From contig JAICXJ010000009.1 of assembly GCA_025980465.1 (NCBI GenBank), forward strand, positions 885 through 64,884: 64,000 nucleotides of DNA. Direction: 5' to 3'. This document shows, piece by piece, positions 33,411 to 56,250 of this stretch (the stretch's first letter is position 1; every line of letters begins with the position of its first letter). Below the pieces are notes generated by a model, which had not been told where the DNA came from, searched no databases, and saw nothing but the letters and a program-made list of their open reading frames with translations. The position numbers and the translations under genes are program-made. The stretch comes from Frankiales bacterium (GTDB lineage Bacteria; Actinomycetota; Actinomycetes; JAFAQI01).

Positions 33411-34360
33411 GTGGAGCGACCGATCATCTACCGCGGCTGCTCGCGCTCGTGCCGTGGCTGCTTGCCCACCCCGGCACCGAGGTCTCCGACGTGGCGCGGG
33501 AGTTCGGAATCACCGAGGCGCAGGTGCGCGCCGACGTGAACCTGCTCTGGATGTGTGGGCTGCCGGGCTACGGTCCCGGCGACCTCATCGACGTGACCTG
33601 GCACGGCGACCGGGTGACGCTGTCGAACGCCGAGACGATCGAGCGGCCGCTGCGGCTCACCAGCGACGAAGCGCTAGCGATGATCACCGCGCTGCGGGCG
33701 CTCTCCGGCGTACCCGGCATCGTCTCCACCGAGGCGATCGACCGGGCGCTCGCCAAGCTCGAGGCGGCTGCCGGTACCGCCGGCGTCGCTGACCGGGTGG
33801 TCGCGGCGCCCGAGTCGGGCACCGACGTCGAGATCGTGACCACCGCCTCGAACGCCCTCGCCCGTGGCCGCCGGCTCCACCTGAGGTACTGGGTGCCGGC
33901 GCGTGATGAAGCCACCGAGCGAGATGTCGATCCGTTGCGGCTGTTCACCAGCGACGGGTCGGCATACCTGAAGGGCTACTGCCACGCTTCGGAGGACCTG
34001 CGCACTTTCAAGCTCAGCCGGGTGCTCTCGGCGGAGATCCTGGACGTGGCCGTCGCGGCGCCGGACGAAGCCCGGCGCCGCGCGTTCGATGCGGACCTGT
34101 TCACCCCGGCCGCGGATGACCGGCTCGTGACGTTCTCGCTGGACCCGGCCGCCCGCTGGGTGTCGGACTACTACCCCTGCGAGACGGTGCAGGAGCGCGG
34201 CGACGGCGGACTAATCGTGCAAATGCGGTCACATGATGACGATTGGGTGCGTTGGCTTGCGCTCGGCCTCGCGGGTGTGGCTGTCCTGACCGAACCATTG
34301 GATCTCGCCGCCGAAGTCCGACATGTCGCGGCTTGTGCCCTGGCGGCCTACCAGAACTAG
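33407..34360 (+). CDS. pafC: WYL-domain regulator PafC
   Basis: RLLALVPW, LWMCGLPGYGPGDLID, AYL, WVSDYYP. Confidence 0.95.
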   Translation: MSGATDHLPRLLALVPWLLAHPGTEVSDVAREFGITEAQVRADVNLLWMCGLPGYGPGDLIDVTWHGDRVTLSNAETIERPLRLTSDEALAMITALRALSGVPGIVSTEAIDRALAKLEAAAGTAGVADRVVAAPESGTDVEIVTTASNALARGRRLHLRYWVPARDEATERDVDPLRLFTSDGSAYLKGYCHASEDLRTFKLSRVLSAEILDVAVAAPDEARRRAFDADLFTPAADDRLVTFSLDPAARWVSDYYPCETVQERGDGGLIVQMRSHDDDWVRWLALGLAGVAVLTEPLDLAAEVRHVAACALAAYQN

Positions 34361-47815: not shown

Positions 47816-48161
47816 CCCCGGCGGGGGGCAACGCCGACAGTCGGGCGAGCCTGCCACTAGCGACAATTCGGACACCGGCACCACGCGCCACACCGACATC
47901 CTGGGTCACAGTTGGGTCACAATTGTCCTTGACCTCACCCTTTCGTTGACTTAAGCGAGAGAGGATGGCGGCCGATCGGAGAAGTGAAGCCGGCAACCGC
48001 CGGTTTCATGGGACACGGTGATCCGAGTGACCCTCACCGACTCCCGGCGCGTTCGCGCGGCGGGGGCACGGAGAAAGACGGTCGCCTAGGTTGCTCGGGG
48101 AGTGAATGGCGAGACCGGCCCGACCGGATGGGGCGCAAGCCCTGATGGACGGGAGCACTCT

Positions 48162-48472: not shown

Positions 48473-48520
48473 TGTCGTGTCCGAAGCGATTTGGTGCCAA
48501 TGGCACTAAGGTTCACCCTC

Positions 48521-48961
48521 GTGGAGGACGTCGACCGCTCAATTGTGCGGCTGCTGAGCGAGGACGGCCGGAGAAGTTTCACCGATCTGTCCCGTGACAC
48601 CGGGCTATCGGTCTCAGCCGTCCACCAGCGAGTACGGCGTCTGGAACAGCGCGGCGTCATCCGCGGCTACCGGGCAATCGCCGACCCGGTCGAGCTCGGC
48701 TTGCCGGTCACCGCATTCATCTCGATCAAGCCGATCGATCCCAGCGGCCCCGACGACGCGCCGGAACGGCTGTCCCATCTGCGCCAGATCGAGGCCTGTC
48801 ACAGCGTGGCGGGGGACGAGAACTACATCTTGAAAGTGCGCGTCGCGTCGCCTGCCGACCTCGAGTCGCTGCTGCAGGAGATCCGCGCCGCAGCGAGTGT
48901 GTCGACACGGACATCTGTCGTTTTGTCGACACCGTACGAGGATCGTCCGCCCGCGCTGTGA
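48521..48961 (+). CDS. Lrp/AsnC family regulator
   Basis: DGRRSFTDL, GLSVSAVHQRVRRLE, CHSVAGDENY. Confidence 0.94.
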   Translation: MEDVDRSIVRLLSEDGRRSFTDLSRDTGLSVSAVHQRVRRLEQRGVIRGYRAIADPVELGLPVTAFISIKPIDPSGPDDAPERLSHLRQIEACHSVAGDENYILKVRVASPADLESLLQEIRAAASVSTRTSVVLSTPYEDRPPAL

Positions 48962-49860
48962 CCAGTTCCGCCGGCCGGTTGCCGACGTTTCTCATCATCG
49001 GGGCGCAGAAGTCAGGCACGACGAGCCTGCACCGGCTGCTCCAGCAGCACCCCGAGGCGTTCCTGTGTGACCCCAAGGAACCCGACTTCTTCAGCTCGCC
49101 GCAGGCCTGGGGGAGAGGGGTGGGCTGGTACCGGTCGCTGTTCGCCGCGGCCGGCGACGCCGGCGCGATCGGTGAGGCCTCGACGACGTACTCGATGTAC
49201 CCCCACTACGCCGGCGTCGTGGACCGGGCGCTCTCGGTCCTGCCGGAACCAAAGATCGTCTATCTGACCCGCGAGCCGCTGGCCCGGATGCGGTCGGCGT
49301 ACCAACACGCGCTGAGTTGGGGGACCGAGACCCGACCGATCGGCACCGCCCTCTTAGAAGACCCGCGCTACCTGCTGACGAGTAGCTACGCCCTCCAGGC
49401 CGACCAGTGGCTCGCCCAGATCCCTCGCGAGCGGCTCCTGCTGCTCAGCCTCGAGGATCTCGGCGCCGATCCGGCCAGAGTGCTCGAGCGGGCGCTCCGC
49501 TTCCTCGGGATCGACGCCAGCTGGCAACCCGCTGCCGATCCGGCGCCACAGAACACCAGCGCCGGCAAGCGGGCTCCGCGGGCTTGGTGGCGGGGGGCGG
49601 GCGGCCTGATGCTGCGTCACGACAAGACCCACTGGGCGCCGCACTGGCTGGCGCGACTCGACGAGCGCCGCTCGCCGTTGGTCCGCCGCGAGATCTCCGG
49701 GGCCGAACTGGAGATTCCGGCGGCAATCGCCGACAGTCTGCGGCGCGCGTTGGCCCCGGACCTGGCCCGGCTAGGTCAGATCTGGACGGATTCGTTTCCG
49801 GGGTGGCTGGATAATCAGTCGGACCGTTCTCAGATATCTCTACCTAAAGTCGAGGGTTAG
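48958..49860 (+). CDS. PAPS-dependent sulfotransferase
   Basis: IIGAQKSGTTSL, KEPDFF, GEAST, REPLARMRS. Confidence 0.9.
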   Translation: MTSSAGRLPTFLIIGAQKSGTTSLHRLLQQHPEAFLCDPKEPDFFSSPQAWGRGVGWYRSLFAAAGDAGAIGEASTTYSMYPHYAGVVDRALSVLPEPKIVYLTREPLARMRSAYQHALSWGTETRPIGTALLEDPRYLLTSSYALQADQWLAQIPRERLLLLSLEDLGADPARVLERALRFLGIDASWQPAADPAPQNTSAGKRAPRAWWRGAGGLMLRHDKTHWAPHWLARLDERRSPLVRREISGAELEIPAAIADSLRRALAPDLARLGQIWTDSFPGWLDNQSDRSQISLPKVEG

Positions 49861-50092
49861 TGTCGTGTTGGCAAAGATCATCTCGCGCTTCGGTCTGAGC
49901 GGGGGGCAAGGCGCGTTGGACGGGACGACCGTGGTCGATCGTCAGGTTTGGTGCCGAATCCGGGCCGCAGCGCCCCGACAGCCTCGCGGGTTACCAACAG
50001 GGGCTGTGGAGGAGAATTCACTGAATTTGATCAAGATCGTCGATCACCGGCCTGACCTGCAGTTTCGGGCGTTTTCGCAGGTCAAGGCGGTG

Positions 50093-50123
50093 TTGACAGC
50101 CACGGGCCCTCGGGCGCTAGGTT
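50093..50123 (+). promoter_or_regulatory. Housekeeping-sigma promoter preceded by a TGACCTGC-N16-GCAGGTCA inverted repeat (50053-50084)
   Basis: TTGACA 50093-50098, 19-nt spacer, TAGGTT 50118-50123. Confidence 0.6.
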
Positions 50124-50129
50124 GCCTGC

Positions 50130-50412
50130 CGTCCACCACAGGGACGTTCGACCTTCACCGCGGTGACGATTCCGGGGATACCGGCTGGCCGGTCGGCGCG
50201 ATGCGTGCACCCGCATCCGTCGAGCTGGTGCCAGGTCCAGTTGGCCCCCGGCGCGTCATGAGCGACAAGGGCGAGCGTGGTGCGACTACTCGGGACAGGC
50301 CCGGGTGCCCAGTAGACAACGGCACTGAGGCGGCTGCCGGCCGCCACAGGGTCGGTCCGAAGGGCACCCGGGCCGGATCCGTTTCCGGCCCGAGGCGAAC
50401 CGTGCCGCCCGG
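50130..50412 (+). ncRNA. Candidate structured ncRNA or cis-regulatory leader upstream of lnt; family not recognised
   Basis: Nested helices 50172-50251, perfect 13-bp stem 50298-50310/50362-50374, alternative pairings, own promoter. Confidence 0.55.
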
Positions 50413-52056
50413 GTGGCGTTGGTAGCGTCGCCGGTTGTAAAGACCGACCGTTTGCGTCATCGCCTCCGACGGGACGCCGCGCGTGCCCTCGCTCGACCCG
50501 GCTGCGCCCTCGCCGCCGGCGTCGCCATCTGGGCCTCGTTCCCGCCGCTGTCGCTCTGGCCGCTGGCGATCTGCGGCGTCGCCGGGCTCACGCTGACCCT
50601 GCGGGGGAGCAGCAAGCGGGTCGCAGCCGGCCTGGGCATGCTGGCCGGTCTCGGGCTGTGGGTGCCACTCATGAGCTTCCTGCGGCTGTCCTTCGGGTTC
50701 GAGGCATGGGCCGCCGTCGCCGTGATCGAGTCGCTGTGGTTCCTCGGGCTCGCGCTCGCGCTGCGGGTCGTCCTGCGGGCCCGCTGGTGGCCACTGACCA
50801 GCTCCCTGTTGTGGGTGGGGCAGGAGTTTCTGCGGGACCGGTGGCCGTTCGGCGGCCTTCCGTGGGGGCGGCTGGCCTTCGGTCAAGCCGGCAGCCCGCT
50901 CGTGCACCTCGCCGCGGTTGCAGGAGCGCCGCTGGTGAGCTTCGCGGTCGCCCTTTCCGGCGCAGCTCTCGCCTGGGTCCTCCTCGCCCGCAGGCGGCGC
51001 CGCGGCGCCGCAGCGGCCATCGTGGGGCTCGCGGCGCTGCTCGCCGGCCCGCTGGCGATCCAGCTGCCGACTGCCGGCACCTCGCGACACGGCGCCCCAA
51101 GCTCAACGGTGGTCGCGGCCGTCCAGGGGAACGTGCCGCGGCTGGGGCTGGCGGAGTTCGCCCAGAAGCGAGCGGTCACCGAGTACCACCTGGCCGAAAC
51201 CCGGGTCCTCGCCGCCGCCGTCGCGGCCGGCCGGCTGCCCCGGCCGGACCTGGTGATCTGGCCCGAGAACGCCTCCGACCTCGACCCCACGACCGACCCG
51301 ATCGCCCGCGCCGTCATCGACAGTGCCGCCGCCGCGGTCCGGGTGCCGATCCTGGTCGGGGCGGTGCTGGACGGACCCGGGCCGAGCCATGTGCGCAACG
51401 CCGCGATCGTCTGGTCGCCCACCACCGGGCCGGGGCAGACCTACGTCAAGCGGCACCTGGTGCCGTTCGGGGAGTACCTGCCGTGGCGTAGCTTGCTGCT
51501 CAAGCTCAATGGCAAGTTCTCGTTGATTTCCAAGGACTTTGCCGCGGGCCATGCGGCTGGAACACTGCATATCGGGGCGATCACCGTCGCCGACACGATC
51601 TGCTTCGAGATCGCCGACGACACCGTCGTGCGGCAGGCGGTCACGGGCGGCGGCCGGTTGCTCGTCGTACAGACCAACAACGCTGACTACGAGCGGAAGG
51701 GCGACAGCGGGAACGGGGGAGAAACCGCCCAGCAACTCGACATCGCCCGGCTTCGGGCGGTTGAGAGCGGCCGGGCGGTCGTGGTCGCGGCCACCAGCGG
51801 CGTGAGCGCGATGATTTCCCCCGACGGCAAGGTGCTGGCCCGGACCGGGGTGTTCACCCCGGCGATACTCGACCTTCGGTTGCCGCTGCGCGACCCGCTC
51901 ACCATCGCCGACCGGGTCGGAGCCTGGCCGGAATGGGTCCTCAGCGCCGCGGGGCTGCTCGGGCTGGGAATCGTCGTCGCAGCAGGCCGCAGGAAACGCC
52001 CGCCGGTCACCCTCAAGCCGGAGTCGAGGGTGGAGCCGTCAGCAGTCGCCAGTTAG
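50413..52056 (+). CDS. lnt: Apolipoprotein N-acyltransferase
   Basis: PFGGLPW, QGN, WPEN, YVKRHLVPFGEY, ICFE, QTNNA, RAVE; start approximate. Confidence 0.94.
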   Translation: MALVASPVVKTDRLRHRLRRDAARALARPGCALAAGVAIWASFPPLSLWPLAICGVAGLTLTLRGSSKRVAAGLGMLAGLGLWVPLMSFLRLSFGFEAWAAVAVIESLWFLGLALALRVVLRARWWPLTSSLLWVGQEFLRDRWPFGGLPWGRLAFGQAGSPLVHLAAVAGAPLVSFAVALSGAALAWVLLARRRRRGAAAAIVGLAALLAGPLAIQLPTAGTSRHGAPSSTVVAAVQGNVPRLGLAEFAQKRAVTEYHLAETRVLAAAVAAGRLPRPDLVIWPENASDLDPTTDPIARAVIDSAAAAVRVPILVGAVLDGPGPSHVRNAAIVWSPTTGPGQTYVKRHLVPFGEYLPWRSLLLKLNGKFSLISKDFAAGHAAGTLHIGAITVADTICFEIADDTVVRQAVTGGGRLLVVQTNNADYERKGDSGNGGETAQQLDIARLRAVESGRAVVVAATSGVSAMISPDGKVLARTGVFTPAILDLRLPLRDPLTIADRVGAWPEWVLSAAGLLGLGIVVAAGRRKRPPVTLKPESRVEPSAVAS

Positions 52057-52403
52057 GCCGACTTCCGCGACTTCGGCGCGGGGTGCAGCTCGGCCAGCCG
52101 CTCGTTGAGGACGTCCTCGAGGTCATCGATAGACCGCCGCTCGAGCAGCATGTCCCAGTGCGTCCTGGCCTGCTTGCCGACCTTCGCCGCCGGCGCCTCG
52201 ACGTCACGCTGCACGGCGGGAGCGCCACAGGTCCGGCATTCCCAGCTCGCCGGCACCTCGGCGTCGAGCGCCATCGGCATCCGGGTCTCGTGGCCCTCCG
52301 GGCAGTCGAAGATGACCTCACGCCGCGGCGCAAGATCGGTATTACGGTCGGTCTCGTAACTTGTGGTTCCGAGGCGGCTGCCCCGTAGGACGCGCTCACC
52401 CAT
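52053..52403 (-). CDS. rbpA: RNA polymerase-binding protein RbpA
   Basis: RVLRGSRLG, CPEGH, WECRTCG, RTHWDMLLERRS. Confidence 0.97.
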   Translation of the reverse strand: MGERVLRGSRLGTTSYETDRNTDLAPRREVIFDCPEGHETRMPMALDAEVPASWECRTCGAPAVQRDVEAPAAKVGKQARTHWDMLLERRSIDDLEDVLNERLAELHPAPKSRKSA

Positions 52404-52625: not shown

Positions 52626-52653
52626 GACGCCGATAATGGACATTATGTCAGGT
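52626..52653. other. dif: dif site (XerCD chromosome dimer resolution)
   Basis: GACGCCGATAA-TGGACA-TTATGTCAGGT, an 11-6-11 layout matching dif (E. coli GGTGCGCATAA-TGTATA-TTATGTTAAAT); intergenic; gene orientation converges here. Confidence 0.88.
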
Positions 52654-52878
52654 CTACCATATCGGGCCGAAGGTGAAGGGATCCCCCGCAGACGGGCCAG
52701 GATTTCGACCCAGGGTCGCTCCGGGCGGCACCCCCGGCCACTCCACAGTCTCAGGTCGCGCAGAACTCATTCACAGTTCGCCGCGATTCGCTATACGGAA
52801 TTCGTCCGGTCGTGCCGACACTGGATGTACCGGCGCGATCCGGCGTCGGAAGGAACGCACAGAAAGAGGGGCACAACG

Positions 52879-53085
52879 ATGTGCCTGCACCACCCGACTT
52901 GCCCGTCGGCCGATGCCGCTGACCGCGACGCCGCCCGCGTGGTCGCGAGTCACCCCGAGCAGGGCTGGAGCCTGCTCTGCAACGGCGTTGTCAGTTTCGA
53001 CGACGCGGGGGACCTACTTCCGGATGGAAGCGTGATCCCGCCGCAGCAGCGGCAGCCGCACGACCACCACCTCCCCGCCGCGTAG
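52879..53085 (+). CDS. DUF5999-like small protein
   Basis: MCxHxPxCP...HPEQGWSLLCNGVVSFDDAGDLLPDG; GAGGGG RBS. Confidence 0.85.
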   Translation: MCLHHPTCPSADAADRDAARVVASHPEQGWSLLCNGVVSFDDAGDLLPDGSVIPPQQRQPHDHHLPAA

Positions 53086-53091
53086 GGCTCG

Positions 53092-55935
<2,844 letters not shown>

Positions 55936-56039: not shown

Positions 56040-56250
56040 CCCCCTCTGTCTACGAACCTGAGAGTGTCCCCCGCCGTAGCGGACCCACTGCGGGTCCGCC
56101 GGGCGAGCTTGCCCCGTCGGTGAGGCGTCGAACGACGCCTGCTCTCCAGAGTGCCCTGCCCGCGCGGTCCGTCTGCCTGAGAGGTTCCGGGGAGGTTGCT
56201 CCTTCGGCGCCCCGGACTGGCGTGCCGGGGACTCTCCCACGCGGGGTGAT
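56040..56250 (-). promoter_or_regulatory. Tandem glycine riboswitch
   Basis: Minus strand GGGAGAG..CGCCGAAGGAGCAA..CTCTCAGGC..GGAC, then CTCTGGAGAG..CACCGACGGGGCAA..CTCTCAGGT..GACAGAG; upstream of gcvP. Confidence 0.95.

Follow-up and report, generated by a model that had tools for sequence, protein, structure and literature searches.

To our knowledge, few RNAs are shared across the class Actinomycetes; these are essentially housekeeping RNAs, Ms1 and 6C. Ms1 (MTS2823/scr3559), which binds the RNA polymerase (RNAP) core, is a mostly single-copy RNA of ~230–300 nt confined to actinomycetes, with a conserved promoter, a rod fold and a 3′ hairpin. 6S RNA (RF00013) is a structured, abundant RNA with its own promoter that binds the sigma-A holoenzyme and, over long evolutionary distances, is kept beside, and probably co-transcribed with, the downstream gene ygfA; the large bubble in the middle of its long helix imitates an open promoter. 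Terminator-embedded aptamers are also known, as in the HMP-PP (thiS) class, in which conserved nucleotides lie within a terminator-like hairpin directly before the regulated gene. The Lnt motif (RF01711) and the actinobacterial mraW (RF01746) and msiK (RF01747) motifs are candidate cis-regulatory motifs of hairpin type, defined by their place in the 5′ untranslated region (UTR) of one gene family, and the Lnt motif, found in Chlorobi, also precedes lnt (PMC2864571). The RNA described in this report resembles each of these in part. It is a structured, conserved RNA gene on the + strand of a 64,000-nucleotide stretch of DNA from a Frankiales bacterium (GCA_025980465.1, contig JAICXJ010000009.1, positions 885–64,884; this whole stretch is called the window), where it occupies ~50131–50378 (about 250 nt) directly before lnt, the gene for apolipoprotein N-acyltransferase. 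The family of this RNA, referred to below as the lnt RNA, appears to be new; its kind, a promoter-proximal structured leader or small RNA (sRNA), is familiar.

An earlier note, made from the letters of the window alone, had stated that the structure matched no known riboswitch class. Comparison with Rfam 15 (4227 models, with the family gathering threshold as criterion) agreed with this statement. At gathering score the matches in the window lay elsewhere only, with none at the RNA, and the region 49800–50600 searched at E ≤ 10 gave only sub-threshold noise from miRNA, Xoo2 and ROSE models. Thirteen homologous loci from other families likewise gave 0 Rfam matches. No earlier description was found in open full text, subscription papers, bioRxiv and transcriptome supplements being outside the scope of that search; the RNA may carry a local name in transcriptome supplements (Streptomyces, Actinoplanes).

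The lnt RNA differs from Ms1 in its neighbours, which are lnt and ppm1 rather than the HAD-IB hydrolase and oxidoreductase genes that flank Ms1. In PMC9130861, HAD-IB hydrolase synteny defines Ms1 homologues, and the carriers in its Table 4 include many of the genera that also carry the lnt RNA. Identity with Ms1 was rejected by synteny and by sequence. The TIGR01490 genes of the source genome are on contigs C49, C39 and C59 and not on C16, the contig of the lnt RNA; in two complete genomes the HAD-IB genes are at 8.95 and 2.27 Mb versus 5.78 Mb for the element, and at 2.40 and 3.48 Mb versus 6.48 Mb. A motif look-up, together with reading by eye, in the PMC9130861 supplement, which prints the S. 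coelicolor Ms1 verified by rapid amplification of cDNA ends, found the three invariant motifs of the lnt RNA 0 times. Separately, a conserved non-coding block of ~300 nt was observed directly upstream of the HAD-IB gene in the source, Micromonospora and Actinoplanes genomes (L152:2236–2303, equal to C39:41487–41554; L155:1143–1465; L156:1166–1420). From its position, this block is plausibly the Ms1 locus, separate from the lnt RNA.

The conserved core of the lnt RNA is a 3′ hairpin with internal loops, which together with the missing Rfam 6S match sets it apart from 6S RNA. Minimum free energy (MFE) folds predicted for 29 homologues are rods with small internal loops and a 6-nt bulge, with no large 6S-like central bubble. 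Compared with the RF01711, RF01746 and RF01747 motifs, the lnt RNA is longer, has its own conserved promoter and sometimes stands alone, and none of the three models scores; identity with the Chlorobi Lnt motif was rejected as RF01711 scores neither here nor at the 13 homologous loci. In contrast to the HMP-PP (thiS) class, no conserved alternative pairing was found for the lnt RNA with the one candidate tested, and stand-alone copies exist. Signal recognition particle RNA (RF00169) was also rejected: its canonical copy is at C39:6289–6386 (59.6 bits), and neither form of the RNA described below scores with that model. The 3′ strand of the hairpin has a 10-nt word, beside a bulged helix, in which we saw a likeness to the conserved Ro60-binding helix of Y RNA. 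This resemblance was not upheld and the candidate was rejected, with no Rfam Y-RNA match and with the TROVE protein family (PF05731) found in only 2 of 5 carriers; no TROVE protein was found in the source genome (95% complete) or in genomes G084 and G069 (99% complete).

Structure, covariation and distribution of the lnt RNA

The lnt RNA lies in a 550-nt intergenic stretch between a sulfotransferase gene (48958–49860) and lnt (50413–52056, + strand; Pfam LNT_N 9e-26, CN_hydrolase 2e-9). This stretch is without coding signal. The G + C content at third codon positions (GC3) is at least 0.9 in one frame of both genes and 0.6–0.8 in all frames between them (49870–50440). A protein-coding open reading frame (ORF) at 49865–50425 was rejected because GC3 is low in every frame and the insertions and deletions of homologues are not multiples of 3; in an alignment of 29 sequences, conservation tracks base pairs rather than reading frame. 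The coding GC3 signal of lnt climbs from ~50460 and its relatives align only from residue ~30, so that the genuine start codon may be later than 50413. The + strand of 50125–50415 folds with −165.8 kcal/mol (z = −4.13), a value equalled by 0 of 200 dinucleotide shuffles, and the reverse strand of the same segment has z = −1.49. The RNA was assigned to the + strand because of the many G-U pairs in its hairpin.

The universally conserved module is a terminal hairpin at 50298–50374 (+), of which 29 pairs were tested by covariation. Its 13-bp basal helix (50298–50310 with 50362–50374) encloses AGTAGACAAC and a GGCGGC/GCCGCC hairpin (50329–50345). Above the basal helix an internal loop, AGUA (50311–50314) opposite CGAA (50358–50361), is followed by GAC/GUC, an AA bulge (50318–50319), CGGC/GUCG, a variable distal stem and an apical loop with GCC(G/A). 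We take the AGUA/CGAA loop to be loop-E or sarcin-ricin-like.

Pairing in this hairpin was supported against every shuffled and slid control. Across 142 distinct sequences, 84.4% of cells were paired compared with 69.4 ± 0.5 after shuffling, double-change cells numbered 631 compared with 259 ± 13, and the covariation score was 0.426 compared with 0.181; 0 of 500 shuffles reached any of the three observed values. Sliding the partners by 1–3 columns gave scores of 0.06–0.16. In 142-sequence alignment members L031–L150, two pattern words are invariant by construction, and only the remaining hairpin counts as evidence there. Hits that were found by a covariance model, and were therefore not selected by pattern, retain CAGUAGACAACGG and GG(U/C/A)CCGAAGG almost unchanged. 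Within the sequences compared, the pairing of the terminal hairpin is proven by covariation, and its internal loops hardly vary class-wide. The 10 nt after the hairpin are pyrimidine-rich in the 142 homologues (C 0.47, T 0.26, with T at 0.11 inside the hairpin). At least four T within 10 nt after the stem occur in only 37 of the 142, and the source sequence is without a T run. The spacer that separates the hairpin from the first start codon possible for lnt (50375–50412, +) is unconserved.

The distribution of the RNA was determined by several searches. A DNA search of the source and 60 related genomes (61 in total) matched 39, including 26 of the 35 of the same family. Matches within the family span 50030–50380 at 70–81% identity, with 50052–50380 as the conserved block and with unconserved flanks, and the core over the 13-bp hairpin was also detected in other families. 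The edges of conservation are sharp in the 29 aligned sequences, starting at an inverted repeat (50053–50084) and stopping after 50374. An exact-pattern scan of one genome per species gave at least 120 stretches; among the matches listed are Micromonospora, Actinoplanes, Plantactinospora, Phytohabitans, Nocardioides, Marmoricola, Nonomuraea, Streptosporangium, Sphaerisporangium, Microtetraspora, Nocardiopsis, Lipingzhangella, Parafrankia, Protofrankia, Phytoactinopolyspora and Jiangellaceae. A covariance model (R1) built on the 142-sequence hairpin alignment found the full-length hairpin in 101 of 151 class-wide genomes and in 81 of the 120 of high quality, mostly as a single strong match per genome and as two in a few (E 1e-9 to 1e-20). 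The similar blocks in other actinomycetes mentioned in the earlier note are real. In a phylum-wide sample of 151 genomes there were only 5 R1 matches, all from the same class, and ~140 genomes of other families in that sample were without a match. Four families of the class also gave none among the genomes searched (f10 0/3, f11 0/5, f28 0/2 and f48 0/4). Some of the genomes counted here are flagged as unpublished (G043, G051, G060, G070, G073 and G080); no individual claim depends on them. The full plan is retained in a 9.2-Mb genome of a distant family, which has the inverted repeat, TTGACA, TAGGTT, GUCCACC, GGUG-U-GAC and the hairpin. Fold z-score, conservation and hairpin covariation, together with the absence of an Rfam match, bear out the unrecognised structured RNA that had been claimed for this position, and a check of the sequence located all of the boxes and helices on which that claim was built.

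A short paralogue of ~90 nt was also identified. The source genome contains a weak second R1 match on the − strand, outside the window, at C51:33464–33550 (element 33454–33559), with TTGACC, a TAGTTT-type −10 box and the same hairpin module. The paralogue hairpin carries (G/C)AGUAGACAACG and GG(A/U)(C/A)CCAA(A/C)GG around a GGGGAAG-loop stem. A separate covariance model for the paralogue (R2) found strong loci of its own (at least 46 bits) in 26 of the 151 class genomes; weaker R2 matches are cross-matches to the lnt-linked RNA. The paralogue had no Rfam match at E ≤ 0.1. The gene that comes next downstream has the opposite orientation at 7 of 9 paralogue loci. Genes for a GNAT acetyltransferase (divergent) and a 4HBT thioesterase lie nearby, and a gene for a Liv-type ABC ATPase or an ANTAR response regulator is convergent with the paralogue; the ANTAR gene has this position at 2 of 9 loci, too few to build on. 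Because the stand-alone paralogue is little more than the hairpin, the hairpin would be the working part of the RNA.

Promoter, upstream DNA elements and 5′ domain

The promoter proposed for the RNA in the earlier note was found where it had been placed (50093–50123, +) and is conserved. It consists of a −35 box, TTGACA (50093–50098), a 19-nt spacer and a −10 box, TAGGTT (50118–50123). TTGACA is kept in 29 of 29 aligned sequences and the −10 box fits TAnnnT; across lineages, TTGACA is followed after ~18–19 nt by a TAnnnT-like −10 box, and the 5′ box of the RNA begins 36–38 nt after the start of TTGACA. By its conserved boxes, this is a sigma-A-type promoter of the RNA's own, with a transcription start predicted near 50130–50131. 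A simple consensus scan of 49800–50600 called neither a promoter nor a terminator there, owing to the 19-nt spacer and the lack of a T run, and its outcome is neither for nor against the conserved boxes.

Upstream of the promoter is the inverted repeat TGACCTGC ... GCAGGTCA (50053–50084, +), which has a T-rich spacer (N16) between its arms and ends 8 nt before the −35 box. All 8 of its pairs are kept in 27–29 of 29 sequences with zero compensatory change, an invariance that fits DNA recognition better than an RNA helix, and the repeat is probably a protein-binding site or an UP-like promoter element. It is also present in Nocardioidaceae, Jiangellales, one metagenome-assembled genome of Frankiaceae and the 9.2-Mb genome of another family. 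A second palindrome, GATCGTCGATC (50035–50045, +), also lies upstream of the promoter and is restricted to the family: columns 33–47 of the 29-sequence alignment read (A)TGATC-N3-GATCA(T) in many family members, and the element is absent from the three other families aligned. It is a possible operator. Invariance without compensation suggests that both upstream palindromes are operators for DNA-binding regulators. In Micromonospora, Actinoplanes and some Nocardioidaceae, direct repeats GACACGCC(G) were observed ~100–130 nt upstream of the −35 box (loci L075, L032, L095, L037 and L035); the GACAC core of these repeats resembles the Streptomyces WhiA site.

The predicted 5′ end of the RNA is formed by a conserved box, GUCCACCAC (50131–50139, +), the 5′ strand of a putative closing helix, P1. 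The same bases can alternatively form a local GTCC/GGAC hairpin (50131–50145, +; GUCC/GGAC in the RNA). The 3′ strand of P1 would be the 3′ box GUGGUG-C-GAC (50277–50286, +), which has one bulged base. GTCCACC of the 5′ box is kept in 29 of 29 sequences and pairs with 50277–50286 in the MFE fold. In the 29 sequences, 91% of P1 cells are paired with no double change, which is uninformative either way. When the boxes are compared by eye across lineages they appear to change in step (GUCCAGC/GUUGGAC, GUCCGC/GCGGAC, GUCCUAC/GUA-C-GGGC and GUCCACUCA/GGGUGGAC), and GUCCACC pairs with GGUG-N-GAC, the bulged N being C, A or U. Duplex energies did not discriminate between own and foreign partners, at −27.2 versus −25.7 kcal/mol in wide windows and −13.1 versus −12.9 kcal/mol in narrow ones, where 46% of dissimilar partners equalled or surpassed the own partner. 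We infer P1 as a closing helix from inspection of the distant lineages.

Between the two boxes lies a rod domain (50172–50251, +) of nested helices with an apical hairpin and a conserved GCCAGGUCCAG (50230–50240). Its helices are CCGGGG (50172–50177) with CCCCGG (50246–50251), CCGGCTGG (50181–50188) with CCAGTTGG (50237–50244), which read CCGGCUGG/CCAGUUGG as RNA, and the apical GATGCG (50200–50205) with CGCATC (50212–50217), all on the + strand. RNAalifold predicted 58 pairs for the 29-sequence alignment, 21 of them with compensatory changes, and 48 pairs for an alignment of the RNA only, 19 of them with compensatory changes. It retained CCGGCUGG/CCAG..GG, in which two pairs have 5 and 9 compensatory sequences. 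Single-sequence folds gave the long rod together with pairing of the 5′ and 3′ boxes in 17 of 29 homologues. The sequence of the rod varies across lineages. It is cut to 25 nt in one variant (L088), and another (L081) consists of promoter, inverted repeat and hairpin only. A MAFFT alignment of 144 full-length homologues was too gappy for analysis of the rod.

The mutually exclusive helices proposed in the earlier note were not recovered as a conserved feature. The alternative pairing of 50286–50294 with 50308–50315 exists in the source sequence and is not conserved in homologues: 19 of 28 sequences cannot form one of its pairs and 10 of 29 cannot form another, and its covariation score of 0.042, compared with a control value of 0.034, was equalled or exceeded by 52 of 500 shuffles. 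The 9-bp hairpin described just before lnt (50369–50392) is likewise present in the sequence, in the unconserved spacer and outside the conserved block. No conserved alternative (anti-terminator) pairing was found, only this candidate having been tested with no systematic search for others.

Gene neighbourhood and candidate modes of action

Synteny was assessed at 80 named loci with 2.5-kb flanks, 78 of which were assessable. The gene lnt is downstream on the same strand within 1.3 kb at 56 of the 80, and a GT2 glycosyltransferase gene (260–330 aa) is downstream on the same strand at 13; 9 loci have neither and 2 were too short. Thus lnt or a ppm1-like gene is downstream on the same strand at 69 of 78 loci. 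We read the GT2 gene as the likely polyprenyl-phosphate-mannose synthase gene, ppm1. At one locus the GT2 gene is followed by FxsA (Pfam); a conserved cluster of lnt, ppm1, fxsA and rbpA is known from actinobacteria. Among 8 further families, lnt comes directly after the RNA in 5, GT2 follows in 1, lnt lies beyond an opposite-strand gene in 1, and neither is found in 1. Where lnt is missing, the RNA precedes the GT2 gene. The RNA of Parafrankia and Protofrankia points away from an lnt or lnt-GT2 gene; at L100 the RNA is convergent with rbpA, and at L175 and L093 there is no same-strand gene downstream. The hairpin and the conserved Lnt core are separated by ~50 nt (two Nocardioides-type loci) to more than 800 nt, and by 50–190 nt in the closest families. 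A gap of ~50 nt leaves hardly any space for a separate lnt promoter; transcripts there must pass the hairpin, which is then no full stop.

Public sequencing runs give a hint of expression. At least half of the sampled words were present in 14 soil DNA runs and 9–17% in 6 metatranscriptome runs. Contigs from 4 metatranscriptome runs (4 studies; soil and rhizosphere) cover 50139–50334 and are 90–96% alike, and so come from relatives. One 179-nt contig had a word depth of 974, compared with at most 28 for the other pieces from that run that were placed on this sequence. The contigs show neither ends nor strand, and their depth is a hint of RNA abundance, not proof; contig starts at 50139/50140 in 3 studies are possibly a graph break at the invariant box and not RNA ends, and missing coverage of the flanks and of lnt carries no weight.

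The lnt RNA is tentatively read as a composite element, a reading given slightly less than an even chance, in which an RNA with its own promoter is partially stopped at the hairpin, read-through yields lnt(-ppm1) mRNA and a trans factor acts on the loops. Transcription would begin near 50131, and the 5′ end would pair with 50277–50286, closing the variable rod. The GC-rich terminal hairpin and the pyrimidine-rich tail would halt or pause most polymerases. The result would be a stable, abundant RNA of ~250 nt, and transcripts that read through would become lnt(-ppm1) mRNA. The AGUA/CGAA loop and AA bulge would dock a trans factor, most likely a protein, that would either set the level of read-through or itself be titrated through binding to the RNA. 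The functional unit would be the hairpin module, and the link to lnt and ppm1 would arise from co-transcription. Synteny favours the link to lnt and ppm1, whereas the exceptions and the stand-alone paralogue favour an RNA working on its own. Several points weigh against the composite reading. Termination is assumed, since the canonical U-tract is missing in the source and in most homologues, and P1 is without formal covariation support. The same-strand placement at 69 of 78 loci fits a plain cis-regulatory leader equally well, and copies that have decayed or moved could account for the 9 exceptions. DNA carry-over in the RNA libraries is possible.

A pure cis riboswitch was judged distinctly unlikely. 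In this alternative the internal loops, with or without the rod, would bind an envelope glycolipid or lipoprotein metabolite, such as a nucleotide-sugar or a polyprenyl-phosphate-related compound, and switch read-through into lnt-ppm1. The position on the same strand directly ahead of lnt or of a ppm1-like gene (69 of 78 named loci, 6–7 of 8 other families), the placement before GT2 where lnt is missing and the concentration of near-invariant unpaired nucleotides in the internal loops would all be explained. No conserved alternative pairing was found, however, and the candidate helix of the earlier note fails; minimal variants begin close to the foot of the hairpin, where a switch would have no space, and the stand-alone paralogue has the same module. 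At least 5 loci have no same-strand downstream gene at all (Parafrankia, Protofrankia, L100, L175 and L093), and riboswitch leaders do not usually have a strong −35 box that is perfectly conserved. The invariant promoter and upstream sites are in keeping with a stand-alone trans-acting sRNA or ribonucleoprotein (RNP) scaffold that has no part in lnt/ppm1 regulation and whose gene order is inherited, as for 6S and ygfA. This explanation, which we consider unlikely, would also fit the usually single-copy, class-wide occurrence of the RNA, its apparently high abundance in one metatranscriptome, the loci that are inverted relative to lnt or lack a downstream gene, and the stand-alone position of the paralogue at 7 of 9 loci. 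It conflicts with the spacer, which in several lineages is too short for a separate lnt promoter, so that the RNA promoter must feed lnt, and with the persistence of the RNA beside ppm1 where lnt is absent, which points to a functional operon link.

Two further explanations were given still less weight. The RNA could be a 5′-UTR stability or processing element, for example an RNase site, of the lnt-ppm1 mRNA, with the short RNA a stable decay remnant. Structured fragments outlive their mRNAs, the hairpin is often without a U-tract, and in the closest families 50–190 nt separate it from the Lnt core downstream; even so, loops that are invariant class-wide and a paralogue without a downstream gene exceed the needs of a protective hairpin, and the explanation was regarded as very unlikely. 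An RNA of the 6S/Ms1 kind that binds RNA polymerase, possibly tied to the nearby rbpA, was regarded as extremely unlikely. Its rod-like 5′ domain closed by pairing of 5′ and 3′ ends, its strong conserved promoter and the presence of rbpA in the same conserved cluster at some loci (L100) would suit such a role, but Ms1 synteny and motifs are absent, there is no Rfam 6S match and the folds contain no large central bubble. Furthermore, RNA immunoprecipitation sequencing in S. coelicolor reported only scr3559 and scr0792 on RNAP (PMC11077062), a result that is relevant only if this species carries and expresses the RNA.

More broadly, the AGUAGACAACG/GGUCCGAAGG-loop hairpin may be the RNA half of a class-wide RNP or sensing system of Actinomycetes with a long lnt-ppm1 form and a short stand-alone form, coupling a protein or metabolite signal to polyprenyl-phosphate-mannose supply and lipoprotein acylation. 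This proposal is possible and at the same time doubtful; if true, the system would bear on glycosylation of the cell envelope and on intrinsic tolerance of antibiotics. The main producers of antibiotics are found among the Actinomycetes. The product of lnt gives rise to triacylated lipoproteins, and that of ppm1 supplies the mannose donor used in protein O-mannosylation and for lipoglycans. Streptomyces coelicolor cells that have lost ppm1 are hyper-susceptible to many antibiotics (PMC5882110), so that regulation of that operon would matter for envelope biology and for intrinsic tolerance of drugs. With the lnt RNA, the class would gain an RNA that is highly conserved, usually single-copy and apparently abundant and that escaped Rfam, and the search for a new RNA-binding factor or ligand would gain a clean, testable target.

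Neighbouring genes and other RNAs

In the source genome, lnt is followed on the + strand by an 84-aa ORF without a Pfam match (52105–52356) and a gene for a DUF5999 protein (52636–53082), which take the place of the ppm1-like gene that trails lnt in many other lineages. At loci L173, L175, L177 and L178, lysine/ornithine aminomutase genes (Lys-AminoMut_A, OAM_dimer/B12-binding) and a 4HBT thioesterase gene were observed repeatedly upstream of the RNA, in several families. The presence of a 4HBT gene beside both forms of the RNA may be the trace of an old duplication.

The window also holds a tRNA match and two riboswitch matches, all from Rfam 15 at gathering score. A c-di-GMP-II-GAG aptamer was matched at 48002–48129 (+) with 48.2 bits against a gathering score of 40; it lies ~360 nt upstream of the gene for an AsnC/Lrp-type regulator (48491–48958) and the sulfotransferase gene. 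Tandem glycine riboswitch aptamers at 56042–56249 (−; 63.6 and 39.1 bits) are upstream of gcvP, the gene for the glycine-cleavage P-protein (53095–55935, −), which is an ordinary arrangement.

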